From positions 1,440,001 to 1,504,000 of the forward strand of contig CAVOXA010000001.1 of NCBI GenBank assembly GCA_963700285.1: a DNA stretch of 64,000 bases, in the 5' to 3' direction. The position numbers were made by a program, and so were the translations under genes. This document shows, in pieces, positions 26,727-38,749 of the stretch (position 1 is the stretch's first letter; every line of letters begins with the position of its first letter). The notes below the pieces were generated by a model. The model was given only the letters and a program-made list of their open reading frames with translations. It was not told where the DNA came from and ran no database searches. This stretch comes from an uncultured Chloroflexia bacterium. Its GTDB lineage: Bacteria; Chloroflexota; Anaerolineae; JAAYZQ01.

Positions 26727-26921
26727 ATGGCAAGCGAACTGAGGCTTTTCACGGCCAAGGAGGCAGCGGCATATCTGCGGGTCAGCCCTTTCACCCTGCG
26801 CAAGATGGAAGAAATGGGCATGATCGTGCCTTATCGCACTCCCGGGGGACACCGACGCTATAGCCTGGACATGCTAAACGAGTATCTGGAGGAAAGCCGC
26901 GTCTTTCCGTCATCCCAGTAG
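26727..26921 (+). CDS. BldC/excisionase-like MerR-superfamily HTH protein, copy 1
   Basis: FTAKEAAAYLRVSPFTLRK..RTPGGHRRY; strong AGGAGG ribosome-binding site. Confidence 0.85.
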   Translation: MASELRLFTAKEAAAYLRVSPFTLRKMEEMGMIVPYRTPGGHRRYSLDMLNEYLEESRVFPSSQ

Positions 26922-27574: not shown

Positions 27575-27769
27575 ATGGCAATAGAGGTTAGGCTCTTGAC
27601 GGCCAAGGAAGCGGCCGACTACTTGCGGGTCAGCCCTTTCACGCTGCGCAAAATGGAGCGCATGGGCATGCTGGTACCGTACCGCACGCCAGGCGGCCAC
27701 CGGCGCTATAGCCTGGACATGCTGAACGAATATCTTGAAAACAGCCGCGTCCAGCCCTATCTGGTGTAG
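27575..27769 (+). CDS. BldC/excisionase-like MerR-superfamily HTH protein, copy 2
   Basis: 53 of 64 aa identical to copy 1 by manual count; same RTPGGHRRY motif. Confidence 0.85.
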   Translation: MAIEVRLLTAKEAADYLRVSPFTLRKMERMGMLVPYRTPGGHRRYSLDMLNEYLENSRVQPYLV

Positions 27770-27930: not shown

Positions 27931-29194
27931 CTAGTTGCGGCCCTCCTGGCCAGCGGTCAGCCTCCGACCCAGGAACAACCCTGCAGCCGCGAGCCCGACA
28001 CCGCCCACGACGAGGATCCAAGCACTGTTGAGAGGCGTGCCACCCGTCTGCGGTACGTTTTCTGGTGCCGCGCCGGCAGAAGCGACCTGCCCTTCCAAGG
28101 AGGTCACACCTGTGAACAGGACCAACTCGCCAGAGCCAGGGGCGCCGACGCCGTTGGTCGTGACGTAGGCGTCACCTGCCGTCGTAAAGTCGATGGAGGT
28201 CGGGAATGACAAGCCACTGAGTACGGCTTCAGAAGCGCCCCCCTCCTTGATGCGGAGGATGGCGCCGCTGTTGGGGACGGGGCCCTGTTCAGTAAACTGG
28301 CCCATCTGCACGGCGTACAGCTGCCCATCAGGACCACTGCGCAAGTCGGTGATCATTGTCAACCCGGTCGCATAATCGCTGACCTGGCCATCGGCCGTCA
28401 CCTTTACCACCTTGGCTGAACCAGGCAGGAAGGGAAAGCCTGGCAGCAGCGAGACGTACATGTTGCCATCCCCGTCAAAGGCTACCGCAGTGGGCACCGG
28501 GTCCGTCTCCATAGCGCCGCCCCGTTCTGGATTGGGGAAGGGCCCTGGCAACCCGCCAAAGACGGCTACCAGATCCACCTGACCACTGCTGGGATCCACT
28601 TTGAGGAGCGTATTCCCACCAGCGTCAGCCACATACAGGCTTTCGTCCGGTCCGGCCGTGATGCCGTAGGGGTGCGAGTCCAGGATATTGGGGTCCGGGT
28701 TCTGCGCCTTCTCCAGCTCCCATAGTTCTGGCTACCTCGGTTGCCGCGCCGTCCTCGATCTTGACCACGGCGGCAGTGTTGGGCAGCGCCTCGTCGCTGA
28801 CAACCCCCAACCAGATGCCGCTTGTGGCATATACTGTGCCGTCCAGCAGCGCCAGGCGGGCGCCGCCGGTTGCCTCCTGGCCGACCAGGATCGAAGGCAA
28901 CGACGCGGCGACGGTCTGACTGCCATCGCTGGCAATCACGACCACGCGTGCCGAATCACCGATCTTGGCCGTGACCTCTTCCCCCGTCTCAGGATTCACA
29001 AAGGGGATATCGTCTTCGCCGCCAACGCCCGAGTCGATGACCCACACGCTTCCATCGGCGGCGACCAGTACACCCTGGGGGGCGTTGAACCCCCCGGCTA
29101 TCGTTGTGCCCCCGCCTTGGGCGCCAGCCACACTGGCCACCAAAAGGACCAGAACCAGCGCCAACCCTGTTACAGAAATTGTCTTCTTGCTCAT
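27931..29194 (-). CDS. ScyD/ScyE family beta-propeller protein with C-terminal sortase-like VPQTG-TM-RR tail (frameshifted at about 28630-28730)
   Basis: Signal peptide; ADAGGNTLLKV, DPVPTAVAFDGDGNMYVSLLPGFPF, TDLRSGPDGQLY, GLSFPTSI; VPQTGG + hydrophobic helix + GRR. Confidence 0.85.
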
Positions 29195-29293
29195 TTGTTT
29201 TCTCCTAAGGCTAATTTTTGGTATTCTATCCAGCCTTCTGAAGCCATGCGAACCTGGTTCGCCCAATGGCTTTGGAAGGTTGGGTTTGACCCT

Positions 29294-30488: not shown

Positions 30489-30896
30489 TCATAGACACCT
30501 GCACAGCAGGTCTAACAGCTTGGCTGTGCCCCATGCCTCACGAATCCGGCCGCCGGAGAAACGCATTACTACAGCGCCCTTTGTCGTCCCCCCCTCATGT
30601 CTGGCAAGATGGCTCTTGGTCGAGCCGGGGAGGCAGCCCTCGATCGCGTACCGGACCGCGACCTTGTCCCCGGTGGCGTACATCTCTTCAATGGTAAGGC
30701 GTTCGTAGGGGAAGCCTGCGACGGCGGTACTGATCCAGTGCTTGTACCGGCTTCGGCCGGAGGTGATCCCGAGTTGGGTGCCATGCTCGACAAAATCGTC
30801 GGCGTACAGGCTGTCGACAACATCCAGATTGCCATGGTTCCAGACTTCATGGAGCGCTTGTTGGGCGCTTTGCCTATTGGTTTCAAGCGTAGACAT
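30489..30896 (-). CDS. SnoaL-like ester cyclase family protein
   Basis: EVWNHGNLDVVDSLYADDFVEH, AGFP, GDKVAVRY, RFSGGRIREAW. Confidence 0.8.
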   Translation of the reverse strand: MSTLETNRQSAQQALHEVWNHGNLDVVDSLYADDFVEHGTQLGITSGRSRYKHWISTAVAGFPYERLTIEEMYATGDKVAVRYAIEGCLPGSTKSHLARHEGGTTKGAVVMRFSGGRIREAWGTAKLLDLLCRCL

Positions 30897-30986: not shown

Positions 30987-31022
30987 ATTCTATCAGTTCA
31001 GTGCATACAAAATGCATACAGC
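30987..31022 (-). promoter_or_regulatory. Promoter with 11-bp-spaced direct repeats (ester cyclase gene)
   Basis: Minus strand cTGTATGCAt-TTTGTATGCA...; 14 nt from TTTGT to TAGAAT. Confidence 0.7.
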
Positions 31023-31037
31023 CAGGCCTGAACGAAA

Positions 31038-31069
31038 GAGGCTCCACCTCTTCGAAGAGGTGGAGCCTC
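31038..31069 (-). terminator. Intrinsic terminator
   Basis: GAGGCTCCACCTCT-tcga-AGAGGTGGAGCCTC followed by TTTCGTT on the minus strand. Confidence 0.8.
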
Positions 31070-31090
31070 GCTACTGCATTTTACCCTTTC

Positions 31091-31339
31091 TCAGCAGCAC
31101 TGTTCTTTGGGCGTGGGTGGCCTGGTAATCCAGGATCGAGCTGCGGCCTTTGTTCTCCCGGCTGAGGCTGCCAGCTGACTGAGCCCAGCCCGGATCTGGG
31201 CCAGCCGGCTGTCCACTAGCGCGAGTTCCGAACCGCCATGTCGCAGGTGTTTTGCCTGGTTTGCCTGCTCCGCTTCCTTGAGCCACTGGTTCGGGACCAT
31301 ATTGTTCTCGTAAGCAACCATGAACCATTCATCGTACAT
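31091..31339 (-). CDS. Small hypothetical protein (82 aa, ends EQCC)
   Basis: AAAGGAG ribosome-binding site before ATG 31339; helical WLKEAEQANQAKHL segment; terminator directly downstream. Confidence 0.68.
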   Translation of the reverse strand: MYDEWFMVAYENNMVPNQWLKEAEQANQAKHLRHGGSELALVDSRLAQIRAGLSQLAASAGRTKAAARSWITRPPTPKEQCC

Positions 31340-31535
31340 CGTTGATCTCTCCTTTGACCGAAGGCCAATTCCTGCGCACAAAATGACACGTTCGCAGAAG
31401 GGAGGCTTCGGTAGTCAAACAAAAGGGACTTCTGTCTTGACTTAGAAAGCTGCGCTAGCCTGTGGCCAACCCACTGGGCAGCGCAAAGCGAGCAATTCTT
31501 GTGGGCCGGCCAAACGCTGCCCTTTGAGATCGAGA

Positions 31536-31574
31536 CAAGTGCCGGATGAGGGCGTCGCCCTCATCCAGCACTTG
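31536..31574 (-). terminator. Stem-loop downstream of the NPELK-repeat gene
   Basis: CAAGTGCcGGATGAGGGCG-t-CGCCCTCATCCaGCACTTG; weak U tract. Confidence 0.6.
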
Positions 31575-31591
31575 CTTGGCTGCGTAGTTAC

Positions 31592-32143
31592 CTAGCAGCC
31601 ACAGTATTGCTCAAATGCGGACAGTTCCGGGTTCACGGAGCCTTCGCCCGAGTTTGCCACTGCCGCTGAACTACCTTCCCAGCCGCTGGCGTACTTTGCC
31701 TCAGGGTTCTCGGCATAGAAGTCAGAGCCTGCTGCTGCCGAGCCACCGCTCCAATTGCTTGCGTACTTTAGCTCGGGATTCTGGACCAAAAAGTCCGACG
31801 CCACTGCTGCTGAGCCGCTGAAGGACTTTAGCTCAGGATTCGTTGCCAACTCTGCGGCATTCTGGGCAACTACCACGCTGTTCCCTTGGCCATAAAAGCC
31901 GGCCAGGGCTTCGTACCGGCTGGTACCGGCTGCATAGCTGGCCTCGAGCCTCTGGGCTGTATAGTACTGCCCCAAGGCTGCCAGCCGGGCGGAGCCGGCG
32001 TCAATGCCGTTTGAGGCACCCCCGTTGTCGGCTGATACTGGCAGGATCACCAGCACCAGAAGGAGTGCCGTCGTCAATACGACCAATTGGGTCTTTGCCA
32101 TACGTTTCTGCTTGCCAGATCTGGATGTGAAAAAGCTTGTCAT
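31592..32143 (-). CDS. Secreted protein with NPEL/NPEA repeats, ends YCGC
   Basis: GGAGGAG ribosome-binding site; signal peptide ...LLLVLVILPVSA; four NPE(L/A) repeats. Confidence 0.8.
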   Translation of the reverse strand: MTSFFTSRSGKQKRMAKTQLVVLTTALLLVLVILPVSADNGGASNGIDAGSARLAALGQYYTAQRLEASYAAGTSRYEALAGFYGQGNSVVVAQNAAELATNPELKSFSGSAAVASDFLVQNPELKYASNWSGGSAAAGSDFYAENPEAKYASGWEGSSAAVANSGEGSVNPELSAFEQYCGC

Positions 32144-32206
32144 CTTCTCTCCTCCGTTCTACCTCGTTAGATTGATTTGACTGAATCTGTTCTGAACCAC
32201 GATTGC

Positions 32207-32253
32207 AGTGTAGCACACGGATGTGCACAAACTCACTACAAAACGCGTACAAA
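32207..32253 (-). promoter_or_regulatory. Promoter with three 11-bp-spaced TTTGT boxes
   Basis: Plus-strand ACAAA at 32227, 32238 and 32249; 14 nt to TACACT (32207-32212), TG-extended. Confidence 0.75.
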
Positions 32254-32376
32254 GCAGTGGTGGGCAAAAATACTGCAAGGAAACGCTGCTATCCCCAGGC
32301 AACAGCAGCGCAGAGTCAGAGTGCTGGCGATACCGGTCGCGACCGGCCATGCCTGGCCAGAGATTGGCCAAGAAGA

Positions 32377-32640
32377 TCAGACGCACCGGCCTGCGGAGAA
32401 TAGGTGCGCGTCTTCCCCGCGCAGGATCGACCGCACTAACTCGTAGTGCGCCAACCGTTCGGCTAGCACGACCCGGCGATAGTCCAACTCGCACAACAGC
32501 CAGTTAGCCCGGCGAGCATACCAGCGTGGTTGCGATCGCCTGATCTCCTGGATTATCTTTTGGTATGCGTTCTCACGCATGATATCTTTGACAAGAGCCT
32601 CGTGTTCTGTACGTACGGTTTGAGCATCCCTAGGAATCAT
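32377..32640 (-). CDS. Small protein, paralogue 3 of the CE(L/M)D family
   Basis: LLCELDYRRVVLAERLAHYELVRSILRGE...GRCV; GAGGAG ribosome-binding site. Confidence 0.78.
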   Translation of the reverse strand: MIPRDAQTVRTEHEALVKDIMRENAYQKIIQEIRRSQPRWYARRANWLLCELDYRRVVLAERLAHYELVRSILRGEDAHLFSAGRCV

Positions 32641-32688
32641 GATGAGTCTCCTCTGTATTCTGTCAGTTTCCTGGCACTGCAACCAGTA

Positions 32689-32943
32689 TTAGCTACAGTG
32701 CCCGGAGGAATACTTGCTCGCCTCGTCTGCATGAAGGATGGACTGTACCAAGTCGTAGCGTTCCAACCTTTGGGCGAGCACTACTCGATGATGGTCCAGC
32801 TCGCACAGCAATCGGTCAAGCTGATGCAACAGCCATCGCCGCTGCCCATGCCGCCTGATCACTCGCGTCTGCTTCGGCAGCATGGCCTCCTGGAGGCGCA
32901 GGTGGTAGAGCGATTCTTCCACTTGATAGTCTGGATGTAGCAT
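32689..32943 (-). CDS. Small protein, paralogue 2 of the CE(L/M)D family
   Basis: LLCELDHHRVVLAQRLERYDLVQSILHADE...GHCS; GAGG ribosome-binding site. Confidence 0.78.
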   Translation of the reverse strand: MLHPDYQVEESLYHLRLQEAMLPKQTRVIRRHGQRRWLLHQLDRLLCELDHHRVVLAQRLERYDLVQSILHADEASKYSSGHCS

Positions 32944-33027
32944 TGTCCTCACTCCATTGCCTGTTTCTGCTATCTTGTCTGCGGATGCGATCTCCCTCGC
33001 GAGACAGCAACCTTAGCTCGGAATGAG

Positions 33028-33063
33028 AACCTACCATGAGAGTGCCTACGGATTGCATACAAA
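33028..33063 (-). promoter_or_regulatory. Promoter with 11-bp-spaced repeats (paralogues 2 and 3)
   Basis: Minus strand TTTGTATGCAa-TCCGTAGGCA...; 14 nt from TCCGT to TAGGTT, TG-extended. Confidence 0.6.
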
Positions 33064-33108
33064 GCCGCATGCTGGCGACGCAAATGTGCATTGCCAGCAT
33101 GCGGCTTT
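33061..33108 (-). terminator. Intrinsic terminator after paralogue 1
   Basis: AAAGCCGCATGCTGGC...GCCAGCATGCGGCTTT, a 16-bp inverted repeat. Confidence 0.75.
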
Positions 33109-33136
33109 GGTACTCCTGCCGGATGACGTAATTCGA

Positions 33137-33403
33137 CTACCTACACTGACTCGTGGAGAAAAAGCTCGTTTCGCCAGCGCGCAGGATGGACTGCGCCATG
33201 TCAAATCGTTCCAGCCGCTGGGCGAGGGCCAAGCGCTGATAGTCCATCTCACAGCGCAGTCGATCCGCGTACTTGGAAAGCCGGCTCTCTTGCCTCTGTC
33301 CTTGGCTTGCTGCACGCCTCAATCGATGGGCGTCCAGGTCGCTCACGGTGTCTTGCTCATGCCTGGCCAGGATTGCTTCACCAGCGCCAAAGTCGATATA
33401 CAT
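33137..33403 (-). CDS. Small protein, paralogue 1 of the CE(L/M)D family
   Basis: LRCEMDYQRLALAQRLERFDMAQSILRAGE...SQCR; GGGAGG ribosome-binding site. Confidence 0.78.
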   Translation of the reverse strand: MYIDFGAGEAILARHEQDTVSDLDAHRLRRAASQGQRQESRLSKYADRLRCEMDYQRLALAQRLERFDMAQSILRAGETSFFSTSQCR

Positions 33404-33489
33404 GTTGTGCCTCCCTTCGAAGCGTCAGCCAAAATGCTTGGGTTGCTGTCAAGGGAAATCCGGCAGCCTTCCCCTCACCCTTGCAGCAT

Positions 33490-33568
33490 ATTGTACCGGA
33501 GCAGGGATTACAAAGTGTTTACAATGCAGGCGCTTGAAGGGGGAGTGTTGTATGCAGAGATGCATACA
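33490..33568 (-). promoter_or_regulatory. Promoter with 11-bp-spaced TTGTAA repeats plus an upstream palindrome
   Basis: Minus strand ATTGTAAacacTTTGTAA; 14 nt from TTTGT to TACAAT; TGTATGCA-gaga-TGCATACA at 33549-33568. Confidence 0.7.
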
Positions 33569-33640: not shown

Positions 33641-36600
33641 TCAAACGTCCAGTTTTTTCAGCACCTGGCTGGCCAATCGCTGGTCGTACGCGGCCCCCGT
33701 TGCCTGAGCCAACGCCAGTGCTTGGTGGGCGTAGGAGACAGCCTCGGCACGGTCGCCGGCGATGTCGTAGGCTTGGGCCAATCCTGACAACAGCCAGCTC
33801 TGCTCCGTGCAGGAGCCGATCTCCTGAGCCAGCGCCAAGCCCGCTTGCAGGTGTTGTATTGCCTCCGACGGGTGCTCCAGGCGTACGTTCAACCAACCCA
33901 GGTGCGTGTGGCACAGGATCTCCTGGGTGCGGTCCGCCGCCCCGCGGGCTATGGAGAGACTCTCTTCCAGAGATATCCGCGCCAGTGCCACGTCACCCAT
34001 GGCCCCGGCCGCAGCACCCATATCCCCAAGGGGCAGGCGCCGCTCCAGGTGCAGGCCGGCGGCCTCGCACCGCTCCAGAGCTTGTTGGGCCAGGTCCATT
34101 GCTTGCCTGCAATCATTTTCGTACCAGGAGAGGGTGGCCAGATTGCCCAGGGTATGAATCTCGTGGACGGTCTCGCCCAGCTCGATAAACTGTCCCAGCG
34201 CTTGCTCTAGATCTTCCCTGGCCAGGTCATAGTCGCCCAGGGCCCGCGCTGCGAGGCCGGACTCGCGCCGGCACATCGCCTCCAGCAGGCGATCCTCTGC
34301 TTCCAGGCTCAGCCGAATGCCGTCCACAGCGCTGGTCCGAGCGTCGGAGAAGCGGCAGAACCAACGGTGGCCGTAGGCTTCCCGCCACCGAAGGTGGGCC
34401 ATGGTCTGTGAGTCGCCCAGAGACGCGGCCAGACGAGCCACCGCTTCCGCATCTTGGGCGTAGGCCTCCATGTCGCCGAGCAGGCGCAGTGCCCAGCCTC
34501 GCTCGTACAGTGCTTCGACCCGGAGTCGCTGGTTGGCGGTCACAGCCTCCGGCCCTTCGAGGTCAACGGCTTCCCACTCCAACAGTTCCAGCGCCTTGTC
34601 AAAGTAGGCGCGCGCTTCGATGTGGGCAAAGACCTGCTTGGCTGTCCGGCCAGCCTGCAGAGCATAGGGTGCCGCTCGACCGGGCTGACCTGCACGCTCG
34701 AAATGTCGGGCCAGTGCCCCTGCATTGGCAGGGTCCAGCCGCTCCAGCGCTTCTCCTGCCCGCCGGTGCAATACTTCTCTGCGCTGGCGACTCAACTGCT
34801 GGTATACAGCCGTCCGGATCATCTCGTGGCGGAACCAATACCCGGTGGCCCCCTCCTCCACCAGGTTCCGTGCCACCACTTCATCAAGGCTGTCCACAGT
34901 CTCCATCTCACCTCTCCCGGACGTTTGACGTGCCAGCGCGAAACTGAAAGACCTGCCCAGGACTGCGCCAGATTCCAGTACCTGCCGAGCTCTGGGGCTG
35001 AGGCGCGCCACCCGTTCCTTGACGGCATCTAGGACGCTGTCGGGAAGGCATAGGGAATCAGCATCCACTAGCTCCTCTGGCTTGCATCCGGCCTCCATGA
35101 GCGACCGTACTGTCTCCAGGAGGAAGAAGGGATTGCCACCGGTGGCCTGTACGAGGCTGCGGACCAGATTCTGGTCACAAGGCAGAATGGCTTCAAGGGG
35201 CTTGAGCAGCTTCTGGATCTCGGCTTCGTTGAGCCCTGTGAGTGGCAGTTCAGTCAGCATGCCCTCTCGGGCCAAGCCCTGGCGCAGATTGAGGACGGTA
35301 TCAGCTTCTTCGCTGCGATAGGTTCCCAGGATCAGCAGCCTGGGGCGGGCTGCATGGGCCAGTTGCCTGCCCACGTAGACCAGCCAATCCAAGGTTGTTC
35401 CGCCAGCCCAGTGGAGGTCATCCAAGCAAAGGAGGACTGGTTGCGGGCCAGCTGCCAGGGCCAACAGGATCTGGTACAGCGCCTCAAATAGCGTAGCCTG
35501 TTCCGAACTGGCCATCGCTGTGGGCGGCATTTCAGGGTGCATGTGGCGCAGTTCAGGTATCAAGCGGCACACCTCGGCGTGACACCAGTCGGCAACCTCC
35601 AACCGATCATGGCGGGTCAGGAGCGCAGGCCGCAATGCCTCTGCCAGTGGCTGATAGGGACTCGATTGCGTGTCTGGATAGGCTGCGCCTACCAGTACCA
35701 GTGCCTCCTCACCCAGGCCCGCAGCAAATTCCTGCATCAACCGCGACTTGCCGATGCCGGGCTCGCCCGAGATGAGGAGAATTCCTCCCTGGCTCTCTCG
35801 GGTGAGGGCAAAAGCATCCTCCATCTGCCGAAGCGACTCGCCTCTCCCGACCAGCTCCACGTCGAGTCCTGGATGCGTGGTCCAGGTCACTTCTACAATG
35901 GGCTTGTGCTCCGCGTCGGGCCAGGGGGCCAGCCTGGGCTGAGGTGCTGGCGCCGCCTCCCCAAGCGGCCCATAGCTTGCCAGAGCAGCCTGGTAAGCCG
36001 CATGGGTCTCTGGAAGTGGCTCTACGCCCAGTTCGTTCTCCAAGATCGTGATGCAGTGGTTATACTGGCGTAGTGCCCCGCTGCGGTCTCCCACGGCCAC
36101 GTATAGTTCGATCACCCGACGATGAATGTCCTCGGCCAGATCGTCGGTTTCCAGATACTTTTGGGCGTAGGCAAGGGCTGAGTCATAGTTGCCTTCAGCA
36201 ATTCCATAGTCGATTAAAGCCGTGAGGGCTTCCAGGTAGACCCGCTCGCAGCTCTCACGTTCCACTGTCATCCAGCTCTCATACTCTGGACCATCAGGCA
36301 TTGAGAACCCGTGGAGGAACGGTCCCCGGTAGTGAGCTACGGCTTGCTGGAGTGCCGCCTGGGGCGCCGCCGAGGGTTGGCTGGCGCACAGACGCTCAAA
36401 GGCTACAAGATCTGACCATGACTGCCGGGGATCCAGTCCGATGTGATCCTCCTGCACGACCAGGACCTCCGGATCGGGCAGATCTCGCCGAAGGTGAGCG
36501 AGCAGGCCAGAAAGCTTGCGACGGGCGGTAAGCTCGGGAACGTCAGGCCAAAATAGAAAAGCCAGGTACTCACGGGGGATGGTGTCTCTCGAAGCTGCTA

Positions 36601-36730
36601 GCCGGAATAGCAGGGCGCGTACCTGGCGGCGCGAGATGGACAGGCGCCGACCTGCCCATTTCGTCGCGGGTGCTCCCAGCAAATAGACCTGCAGAATGGC
36701 TTTGGTATCTACAGTGGGCTTATCGATCAT
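33641..36730 (-). CDS. BTAD/SARP-family transcriptional regulator with AAA/STAND ATPase and TPR domains
   Basis: LQVYLLGAP, REYLAFLFWPD, YRGPFLHG, EDIHRRVIELY, ELGVEPLPET (BTAD); GEPGIGKS; LDDLHWA; GGNPFFLLE; FRHEMIR; TPR C-terminus. Confidence 0.93.
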   Translation of the reverse strand: MIDKPTVDTKAILQVYLLGAPATKWAGRRLSISRRQVRALLFRLAASRDTIPREYLAFLFWPDVPELTARRKLSGLLAHLRRDLPDPEVLVVQEDHIGLDPRQSWSDLVAFERLCASQPSAAPQAALQQAVAHYRGPFLHGFSMPDGPEYESWMTVERESCERVYLEALTALIDYGIAEGNYDSALAYAQKYLETDDLAEDIHRRVIELYVAVGDRSGALRQYNHCITILENELGVEPLPETHAAYQAALASYGPLGEAAPAPQPRLAPWPDAEHKPIVEVTWTTHPGLDVELVGRGESLRQMEDAFALTRESQGGILLISGEPGIGKSRLMQEFAAGLGEEALVLVGAAYPDTQSSPYQPLAEALRPALLTRHDRLEVADWCHAEVCRLIPELRHMHPEMPPTAMASSEQATLFEALYQILLALAAGPQPVLLCLDDLHWAGGTTLDWLVYVGRQLAHAARPRLLILGTYRSEEADTVLNLRQGLAREGMLTELPLTGLNEAEIQKLLKPLEAILPCDQNLVRSLVQATGGNPFFLLETVRSLMEAGCKPEELVDADSLCLPDSVLDAVKERVARLSPRARQVLESGAVLGRSFSFALARQTSGRGEMETVDSLDEVVARNLVEEGATGYWFRHEMIRTAVYQQLSRQRREVLHRRAGEALERLDPANAGALARHFERAGQPGRAAPYALQAGRTAKQVFAHIEARAYFDKALELLEWEAVDLEGPEAVTANQRLRVEALYERGWALRLLGDMEAYAQDAEAVARLAASLGDSQTMAHLRWREAYGHRWFCRFSDARTSAVDGIRLSLEAEDRLLEAMCRRESGLAARALGDYDLAREDLEQALGQFIELGETVHEIHTLGNLATLSWYENDCRQAMDLAQQALERCEAAGLHLERRLPLGDMGAAAGAMGDVALARISLEESLSIARGAADRTQEILCHTHLGWLNVRLEHPSEAIQHLQAGLALAQEIGSCTEQSWLLSGLAQAYDIAGDRAEAVSYAHQALALAQATGAAYDQRLASQVLKKLDV

Positions 36731-37838: not shown

Positions 37839-38501
37839 CTACTCCTCTGAGTCCAGGAGGCAGTAGCCGACCCCGCGCACCGTGCGCAGCAGGGTGGGTT
37901 TCCTGGGTTCATTTTCGATCTTTTGGCGCAGCCAGCAGATGTGGACGCTGAGCGTGCGGGTATCCCCCACATAGTCGGTTTCCCACACCTGCTTCATGAT
38001 CTCCTGGCGGCTGACCACTCTACCTGCATTGCCCATGAGCAGGGCCAGCACACTTGCTTCCCTGGGCCGGAGCTGCCAGCTCTGTCCACCCCTGTGTAAC
38101 ACGCGACTATCCAGATCCAACACCAGGGAACCAACCTGGATCTGTCGGAAGGTGATATGCTCAGCGGCGACTCTGATCCGGTGCAGCAGCTTGCGTGAGG
38201 TGAAGGGACGAGTCATGAATGCCTCTGCGCCGCTGCCTGCGGCCTGATGTCCTTCCTCCAGGAGCAATACTGTCGGCACGCCCGCCAGGCGGCTACGGAC
38301 AATATCACTCACTGCGTACCCCCTCGGGCCAAAGGAGGCGACGTCAATCACCAGCAGGTTGGGGCGTAAGGACCGGATCTGGCCCATGGCTTGGCGTTGG
38401 TTGTGGGCCACTCCCACCTGATAGCCCTTCCGCTGGAGGCTGGGGACCAAAGAGTCAGCGGCCGAAATGTCGTTTTCGACAAATAGGATTCTTAGCCTCA
38501 C
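37839..38501 (-). CDS. OmpR/PhoB-family response regulator (no adjacent kinase)
   Basis: ILFVEND, PNLLVID, MTRPF, VWETDYVGDTRTLSVHICWLRQKIE, LRTVRGVGY; GTG start is inferred. Confidence 0.88.
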   Translation of the reverse strand: MRLRILFVENDISAADSLVPSLQRKGYQVGVAHNQRQAMGQIRSLRPNLLVIDVASFGPRGYAVSDIVRSRLAGVPTVLLLEEGHQAAGSGAEAFMTRPFTSRKLLHRIRVAAEHITFRQIQVGSLVLDLDSRVLHRGGQSWQLRPREASVLALLMGNAGRVVSRQEIMKQVWETDYVGDTRTLSVHICWLRQKIENEPRKPTLLRTVRGVGYCLLDSEE

Positions 38502-38749
38502 AGGTTCGCAACCTTGGGAACTGTTACGGCCCGGCAGGGACTTGCCCTGGCTCATCAGACTACTTGGCTCCTCGTAAGGGGTTGATACCATTATACCACA
38601 AAAGCCCGGAGCCTGCATCTGTCGAGGGCATGGTGTCTTGCCCGTACTAATGAGCATCCTAGCTGTACCCTCGTAGAGGAAGCCGCAGAGGCACCCGGTC
38701 CGGTGATTCTTGCCCTCGATGGAAAGGGGCCCCAGCCTTACTCGCTGCC

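Follow-up and report, generated by a model that had tools for sequence, protein, structure and literature searches.

A predicted SARP-type operator shared by four promoters behind an AfsR-like regulator gene in an uncultured Chloroflexota bacterium

Introduction

The closest described counterpart of the system analyzed here is AfsR of Streptomyces coelicolor, which occupies two 11-bp repeats at positions -40 to -19 of the afsS promoter, a promoter with a poor -10 element; the base-contacting residues are R92, which reads T-38 and T-27, and T88, which reads -36 and -25 (PMC10936776). AfsR is released from inhibition by its ATPase-TPR part in an ATP-gated manner (PMC10936776; bioRxiv 10.64898/2026.09.02.748808) and is described as an activator (PMC10936776, PMC11301090); PMC11301090 and PMC10972967 agree with this general design, and the latter adds that PhoP shares the afs box with AfsR. 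Here, we analyzed a 64,000-nucleotide stretch of DNA (the window) from an uncultured Chloroflexia bacterium of the class Anaerolineae (GenBank assembly GCA_963700285.1, contig CAVOXA010000001.1, positions 1,440,001 to 1,504,000), in which a gene for an AfsR-like protein is followed by four short sites, P1 to P4, that combine 11-bp repeats with a -10 element. Comparison with related loci indicates that these sites are very probably sigma-70-type promoters activated by the protein encoded directly upstream of them.

Literature searches on Chloroflexota SARP, BTAD, AfsR or STAND proteins and on Anaerolineae regulons returned no such operator, as judged from titles and the beginnings of abstracts of mostly open-access papers. 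A search with the letters of the box gave only unrelated papers among the matches listed.

Results

Four sites of one geometry behind the regulator gene

A sequence-only reading of the window had proposed four promoters of identical geometry, with TTTGT-like boxes every 11 bp. Its 9 boxes are letter-exact on the plus strand (ACAAA 31007 and ACAGC 31018; ACAAA 32227, 32238, and 32249; ACGGA 33048 and ACAAA 33059; ACAAA 33510 and ACAAT 33521), as are its 4 minus-strand -10 hexamers (TAGAAT 30987, TACACT 32207, TAGGTT 33028, and TACAAT 33490), and 14 nt separate the proximal box from the -10 hexamer at 4 of 4 sites. The proposed lack of a canonical -35 was also borne out: the best match to TTGACA at 15 to 19 nt spacing has 3 of 6 letters, and a sigma-70 scan lists none of the 4 sites. 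Taking the -10 hexamer as positions -12 to -7, a register inferred from the scaffold description in the AfsR work, the elements are as follows.

33504..33525, minus strand: P1 operator, two 11-bp units (33525-33515 and 33514-33504), 116 nt behind the regulator stop codon
33490..33495, minus strand: P1 -10 element TACAAT, with G at -14 and without TG; predicted start ~33483
33042..33063, minus strand: P2 operator, two 11-bp units
33028..33036, minus strand: P2 extended -10 element TGG-TAGGTT; predicted start ~33021
32221..32253, minus strand: P3 operator, three 11-bp units, the top-scoring site in the genome
32207..32215, minus strand: P3 extended -10 element TGC-TACACT; predicted start ~32200
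31001..31022, minus strand: P4 operator, two 11-bp units
30987..30995, minus strand: P4 extended -10 element TGA-TAGAAT; predicted start ~30980

The repeat unit is 11 bp, and the distance from the 3' repeat to the -10 element is fixed (8 nt after the 11-bp unit as drawn), with an invariant T at -27 and -38. GT at -39/-38 and at -28/-27 is invariant in all 4 sites, so that their register equals that of the afsS promoter. The -10 element is TG-extended at 3 of the 4 sites (P2 to P4), which the earlier reading had overlooked, and G occupies -14 at all 4.

A scan of the 64-kb window with TTTGT-N6-TTTGT-N14-TAnnnT at up to 2 mismatches returned exactly these 4 sites, all on the minus strand and within 2.5 kb, compared with a mean of 0.08 and a maximum of 1 site in 60 locally shuffled windows; this contrast is inflated because the rule was derived from the same sites. 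Genome-wide (7.05 Mb), the simple rule was not enriched, with 29 matches at up to 2 mismatches versus 9 to 37 for other geometries and 6 matches at 1 mismatch versus 0 to 6. Independent tests were therefore needed, and independent support for the observation comes from other genomes and from a matrix trained without this genome.

The upstream gene encodes a large SARP-type regulator

33641..36730, minus strand: large SARP-type regulator, 1029 aa, with winged helix, BTAD, STAND ATPase, and C-terminal TPRs

The winged helix of this protein spans residues ~12-105, with the recognition helix at 66-83 (G75, A78, and H79). It is followed by a BTAD domain (PF03704, residues 107-248, E 2e-21) and a STAND ATPase (AAA_16 at 292-462, Walker A at 322, and Walker B region at 433); TPR_12 was also matched. 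Pfam Trans_reg_C gave no match to the regulator at E<=0.001. A family profile built from 11 N-terminal regions aligned to EmbR (E 1.6e-10) and AfsR (E 7e-8) over positions 3-244, and an AlphaFold model of residues 1-260 (predicted local distance difference test, pLDDT, 89.9) had AfsR and EmbR as its sole structure matches at E<=0.001 (8K60, 8HVR, and 2FEZ; E 3e-10 to 6e-9, template modelling score 0.64-0.67). Because both profile and model match AfsR and EmbR, the winged helix is assigned despite the missing Trans_reg_C hit, and with its BTAD, STAND ATPase, and TPR domains the protein is a large SARP-type regulator. Its family is found mostly in Chloroflexota, chiefly Anaerolineae. The AfsR polymerase-contact residue E76 aligns with D63, which is near-invariant among 29 sequences, and the AfsR pattern L243/E246/L247/V249 resembles L230/E233/L234/V236 of the regulator (matched by eye). 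Orthology to AfsR was rejected: the protein scores 47 bits against the NCBIfam model NF053617, whose cut-off is 1430, and the box differs from CGTT(T/C)ATCG.

The site follows the regulator gene in other genomes

Among close homologues of the regulator, 8 of 11 regions carried a site past the gene stop (3 sites in the same-genus genome G001; one on the opposite strand, 2.5 kb off), and 2 of the other 3 had little or no downstream DNA. No rule match was found in 9 regions of more distant paralogues. We then assembled regulator loci from 2 collections (80 of 373 and 80 of 370 confirmed, 160 in all, reduced to 113 at 85% identity). In 112 of these loci (1.33 Mb, the G001 locus excluded), a period of 11 with a spacer of 14 gave 60 matches at 1 mismatch versus 0 to 5 for 29 other geometries, and 81 versus 0 to 36 at 2 mismatches, the figure of 36 arising from an offset reading with the distal box in common.

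For position, we considered the 70 intact non-redundant genes with at least 500 nt downstream, using the rule fixed beforehand from the window. A site lay within 500 nt past the regulator stop in 58 of the 70 (median 58 nt), compared with 0/56 upstream on the same strand, 1/56 upstream on the opposite strand, and 0/70 downstream on the opposite strand. The 12 misses include 4 recognizable boxes at 3 mismatches, 2 sites ~900-960 nt off, and 1 site on the other strand. The regulators of these relatives are ~41-61% identical to that of the window in their N-terminal part. The box consensus of these loci is TTTGTAG(C/A)CA(T/C), present twice; the consensus TTTGTAnGCA proposed earlier holds as a relaxed form of this lineage and not for the family, which has TTTGTAG(C/A)CA. 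TG at -15/-14, a feature outside the rule, is present in 45 of the 58 site-bearing loci.

The genes behind the site vary (GYD, DUF3303, ABM, SRPBCC, SnoaL, and glyoxalase families and large likely secreted proteins; 55 of 81 candidate open reading frames (ORFs) scanned). Since the downstream genes differ while the site stays, the site follows the regulator and not the targets. The commonest first target is a conserved unnamed protein of ~70 aa (L052, L057, L063, L073, L114, L134, L138, L151, L163, L174, and L175), for which no Pfam family was matched in the members scanned.

Recognition-helix residues covary with box bases

In a mutual-information analysis of 55 loci and 678 alignment columns, the top-ranking column was residue 75 of the recognition helix for both box base 8 and box base 7; for box base 6, residues 79 and 78 came out on top. 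His75 was accompanied by C8 in 59 of 64 boxes and other residues in 0 of 46, Tyr79 by G6 in 12 of 12, and His79 by A6 in 80 of 86. In 12 held-out loci chosen on the TGT core only, His75 again went with C8 (8/10, versus 0/14 for other residues), giving pooled counts of 67/74 for His75 and 0/60 for the others. Counted from the conserved Trp, with no gap in between, residues 75 and 79 correspond to AfsR T88 and R92 (profile match weak, E 0.026), and their predicted reading has the same polarity and the same 2-bp offset as in AfsR, shifted by one base. The boxes of the window are relaxed at bases 7-8, as at other Gly/Cys75 loci (L154, L137, and L138), and Gly75 of the window regulator would agree with these looser boxes. 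A helix-base code is well indicated, short of formal proof.

A sister subfamily differs both in its recognition helix and in its paired box, which reads T-run, G, G/A, C, A and occupies the same 11-bp/8-nt position; this box was found behind 4 of the 9 distant paralogues (L043, L044, L045, and L048, 45-274 nt past the SARP-STAND stop), and L204 looks similar. An 11-bp repeat pair of other sequence stands before a -10 at G000 C10:1779943 (minus strand), divergent from a SARP paralogue starting at ~C10:1780071.

Unlinked candidates found by the matrix

We trained a matrix on 23 non-His75 loci for the boxes and 55 loci for the -10, excluding this genome and G001. At 24 bits or more, it found 7 sites in the genome at the true geometry versus 0 to 2 at 32 other geometries. 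The genome scan suggested by the sequence-only reading gave no enrichment as a simple rule and gave enrichment in matrix form. The window sites rank 1, 5, 6, and 9 of 10 genome-wide, and the matrix adds ~5 unlinked candidates. The one at C14:1032581 precedes paralogues of the 88-aa and 82-aa ORFs of the window (46% and 51% identity over the aligned parts) and has no SARP-domain match nearby. Candidates at C10:1905785 and C10:1291383 precede small likely secreted proteins; the latter stretch was not found in G001 (90% complete), and this candidate is unconfirmed. The C5:168164 candidate is kept in G001. The C22:335281 candidate precedes a DUF1269 gene and is also unconfirmed, with no site at the best G001 match (66% identity, possibly a paralogue).

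G001 keeps all 4 window promoters, though it lacks one of the paralogues, and its unlinked sites precede further small likely secreted proteins. Such proteins at L221 and L217 (G001), G000 C1 ~101690, and C10:1905785 include some with short repeats and C-terminal cysteines like the 183-aa protein of the window. The unlinked targets may represent a peptide-signal or surface-protein output. The regulator at L031 (G001) is frameshifted in its TPR region, leaving a 946-aa frame and a separate C-terminal piece, which may be an assembly error.

Predicted target genes in the window and RNA contigs

All genes concerned lie on the minus strand, in the order regulator, P1 and the 88-aa ORF, P2 and its 84- and 87-aa paralogues, P3 and the 183-aa and 82-aa ORFs, and P4 and a SnoaL-like gene, with a clear ribosome-binding site before each gene.

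33137..33403, minus strand: 88-aa ORF, the first in a set of three paralogues and without a known family; RNA contigs span it
32689..32943, minus strand: 84-aa paralogue; likely start 32943 by ribosome-binding site
32377..32640, minus strand: 87-aa paralogue; likely start 32640
31592..32143, minus strand: 183-aa protein of no known family, with a hydrophobic N-terminal segment (likely a signal peptide, by eye) and short internal repeats
31091..31339, minus strand: 82-aa ORF with two cysteines at its C-terminal end; likely start 31339; a paralogue lies behind the unlinked C14 site
30489..30896, minus strand: SnoaL-like (NTF2-fold) protein, 135 aa from its likely start

The three tandem paralogues are 24-36% identical. 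Pfam gave no family for the four small ORFs or the 183-aa protein, NCBIfam none for the 88-aa and 183-aa proteins, and Atlas matches were below 0.9 or none; 7 and 8 homologues of near length were found for the 88-aa and 183-aa proteins, respectively. The 183-aa repeat protein was considered as an AfsS counterpart and rejected, the analogy being one of position only, without sequence support.

Part of the stretch is present in 14 sediment metatranscriptome runs, of which we compared 8 (all contigs, from one year and possibly one campaign). RNA contigs cover the target ORFs in these 8 runs. Among the pieces listed, upstream contig ends at P1 fall at 33470 (3 runs), 33474 (1 run, then adapter), and 33431 (3 runs), none extending upstream of 33474 into the P1 boxes; at P3, one contig ends at 32191 (1 run). 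Relative to the predicted starts 33483 and 32200, the ends at 33470-33474 and 32191 fall 9-13 nt inside, and the one at 33431 falls 52 nt inside. Contig ends near predicted starts are a weak hint, as contigs cannot show starts or regulator dependence. For the regulator gene, two RNA pieces occur in 1 of the 8 runs; they were left unused, contigs showing neither absence nor level.

Other features of the region were noted in passing. At 31715, in the repeat region of the 183-aa protein, an in-frame insertion of 6 nt is present in RNA contigs of three runs, reflecting strain variation. Two overlapping ORFs (213 and 233 aa; 27931-29266, minus strand) resemble a single secreted beta-propeller-type gene interrupted by a frameshift; at 28725, one letter is missing from the RNA contigs of two runs, so the interruption may be an assembly error or a strain variant. 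Near-identical 64-aa excisionase-like helix-turn-helix genes (HTH_17/MerR) lie 850 nt apart at 26727-26921 and 27575-27769 (plus strand).

Hairpins around the promoters of the window and its relatives

33444..33488, minus strand: hairpin at the start of the predicted P1 transcript, ~-21 kcal/mol (75-nt stretch folded); without a T-run and not a canonical terminator
33064..33079, minus strand: terminator-like hairpin; its T-rich tail doubles as the distal P2 box
32284..32307, minus strand: terminator-like hairpin upstream of the P3 boxes
31038..31069, minus strand: 14-pair terminator-like hairpin upstream of the P4 boxes

The hairpins upstream of the P2, P3, and P4 boxes agree with separate transcription units. 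In the relatives, 28 of 58 loci have a stem-loop with a T-run in the stretch from the regulator stop to 250 nt beyond the -10, and in 20 of 58 its 5' arm starts inside the -10 hexamer (1 on the opposite strand). These fused loci, which include L052, L060, L133, L138, and 16 more, have the predicted start in the loop, with a G+C stem in which G-U pairs are common, followed by a T-run on the coding strand. Across 26 sequences, 96.5% of cells pair and 7 of 10 pairs change on both sides, including one with a -10 base; the sequences were selected for having the hairpin, so selection favours pairing. At the 4 sites of the window, a T-tailed hairpin fused to the -10 is absent. In L137 (3311-3360) and L154 (5082-5130) the hairpin lies ~24 nt further downstream, and its 5' arm could pair with an additional segment upstream (by eye and fold), possibly as a built-in anti-terminator.

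Discussion

A model for activation, and its alternatives

We propose that P1 to P4 are sigma-70-type promoters which the AfsR-like protein very probably activates. The operator that the sequence-only reading had predicted for this neighbour is supported by the linkage in 58 of 70 loci, the helix-base covariation, the afsS-like geometry, and the presence of an OmpR-type homologue in only 3 of 58 loci. By analogy with AfsR structures, each box would hold one SARP domain, and the two domains, as a side-by-side dimer across the -35 region, would replace the -35 contact and recruit RNA polymerase via sigma region 4, the beta flap, and the C-terminal domain of alpha. As in AfsR, the STAND ATPase and TPR domains would hold the regulator off until a signal triggers nucleotide exchange. 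The predicted targets are the small cytoplasmic paralogues, the likely secreted repeat proteins, the SnoaL-fold protein, and probably a handful of unlinked promoters. Terminator-like hairpins, upstream of the boxes at P2 to P4 and fused into the -10 in many relatives, would likely insulate these units from read-through. In the relatives, read-through from the regulator gene would stop at the fused terminator, and activated transcripts would escape it because a start in the loop leaves out the 5' arm.

Several observations weigh against this model. P1, the site nearest to the regulator gene, has the lowest score among the four (19.5 bits, and 10.1 in G001); P1 and P2, which stand in front of genes paralogous to each other, may go back to the duplication of one unit; and 5 of the 70 loci lack a recognizable box. 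A near-consensus TG-extended -10 could fire without an activator, unlike the poor afsS -10. Three runs have their RNA contig end at 33431 instead of near the predicted P1 start, one RNA piece (32894-33044) crosses the P2 -10, and another reaches 30990, inside the P4 -10. On a quick tree built without the DNA-binding domain, both covarying traits change ~6 times; the well-supported independent pairs number 3 for His75 and 5 for Tyr79, none contrary (sign test p 0.25 and 0.125), and formal significance is out of reach because there are too few independent changes.

The main alternative is that the SARP-type protein binds the boxes and represses promoters that are constitutive through their extended -10, which we consider unlikely. 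It would account for the TG-extended near-consensus -10 elements (45/58 loci, 3/4 in the window) and for the presence of the target ORFs in RNA libraries, and it is usually repressors that occupy sites over the -35/spacer region (PMC11301090). However, the AfsR papers cited describe activation, the polymerase-contact residues of AfsR have counterparts in the regulator (E76/D63 and, by eye, L243/E246/L247/V249), and the distance to the -10 is exact to the nucleotide, which is what recruitment of polymerase would predict.

A different regulator could also read the boxes, as OmpR-family proteins bind 11-bp direct repeats. An MtrA/PhoB-like gene (37839-38657) lies 1.1 kb upstream of the SARP regulator gene, and this or a global OmpR/PhoB-type response regulator might be the reader, by the precedent of PhoP on the afs box (PMC10972967). 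We hold this to be very unlikely: a homologue of that gene occurs in 3 of the 58 site-bearing loci (mean locus 15 kb), the box changes with the helix of the neighbouring SARP protein, and the box found at this position in the sister SARP subfamily is another one. Possibly, the SARP regulator and a second regulator use the boxes jointly. That the sites are relics of tandem duplication or chance matches in AT-rich intergenic DNA without a regulatory role, as three paralogous ORFs in tandem, a motif defined after the fact, and a simple rule unenriched genome-wide might suggest, is highly improbable and largely refuted, since the boxes persist though the paralogues have diverged to 24-36% identity, P3 and P4 precede unrelated genes, and the cassette is kept at 58/70 loci with ~41-61% identical regulators and at unlinked promoters.

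A broader proposal, towards which we lean slightly, is that Chloroflexota carry a large family of portable cassettes linking a sensor to a promoter. In each, a SARP-STAND-TPR switch gene would be directly followed by the operator it uses and an extended -10, in many cases with a terminator fused to that -10, and a two-residue code (His/Arg/Gly/Gln75 with base 8, His/Tyr79 with base 6), together with the sister boxes, would separate the paralogues within one genome. If so, any gene placed behind the cassette gets captured, and the natural recognition code for SARP activators and the terminator-promoter geometry would be new relative to the literature found. In that literature, NLR-like one-component activators of this kind are characterized only in actinobacteria; for those widespread in uncultured Anaerolineae, the present analysis offers a concrete operator, predicted starts, and a small regulon. 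The covariation makes SARP specificity testable by single substitutions and could supply orthogonal activator-promoter pairs, and the operator could serve as a reporter for finding the signal sensed by the ATPase-TPR part.

Comparison with known systems

OmpR/PhoB direct-repeat boxes likewise have an 11-bp period, a winged-helix reader, and replacement of the -35; those systems are controlled by two-component phosphorylation, whereas the regulator here has a built-in ATPase-TPR switch, and they are unlinked to these sites. The small SARPs (ActII-ORF4, DnrI) and EmbR (PDB 2FEZ) share the SARP fold, and their sites upstream of the -10 also consist of 2-3 repeats at an 11-bp period. The repeat sequences are different, and the ATPase-TPR module is missing from these proteins, EmbR carrying an FHA domain. 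In promoter-coupled terminators, the same DNA between tandem genes serves as terminator and as downstream promoter; the stem sits at the -35, the T-tract immediately precedes the -10, and transcription ends ~10 nt upstream of the start (bioRxiv 10.64898/2026.08.19.745784). The fused cassettes of 20 of the 58 relatives have this sharing in common with them; however, their stem begins within the -10, the predicted start falls in the loop, and the T-run comes after that start, a geometry not found in the available portion of that preprint.

AfsR and its afs box (PDB 8K60, 8HVR) are the closest match, having the same winged helix, BTAD, STAND ATPase, and TPRs, two 11-bp direct repeats over the -35 region with G-T at -39/-38 and -28/-27, base reading through the same two helix positions (here predicted), and a small target gene directly behind the regulator gene. 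The present system differs in its Chloroflexota host, in an ATPase that scores as AAA_16, and in the weak match to the NCBIfam AfsR model. The box is TTTGTAG(C/A)CA instead of CGTT(T/C)ATCG, and the -10 is near-consensus and TG-extended instead of poor. Unlike AfsR-afsS, it has several promoters in a row together with unlinked targets, and its targets vary freely between genomes; no antibiotic pathway was found among the annotated targets. This is very probably a SARP activator-promoter design outside actinobacteria, and the design itself is the known AfsR one; what goes beyond it is the helix-base covariation and, in the relatives, the terminator built into the -10.

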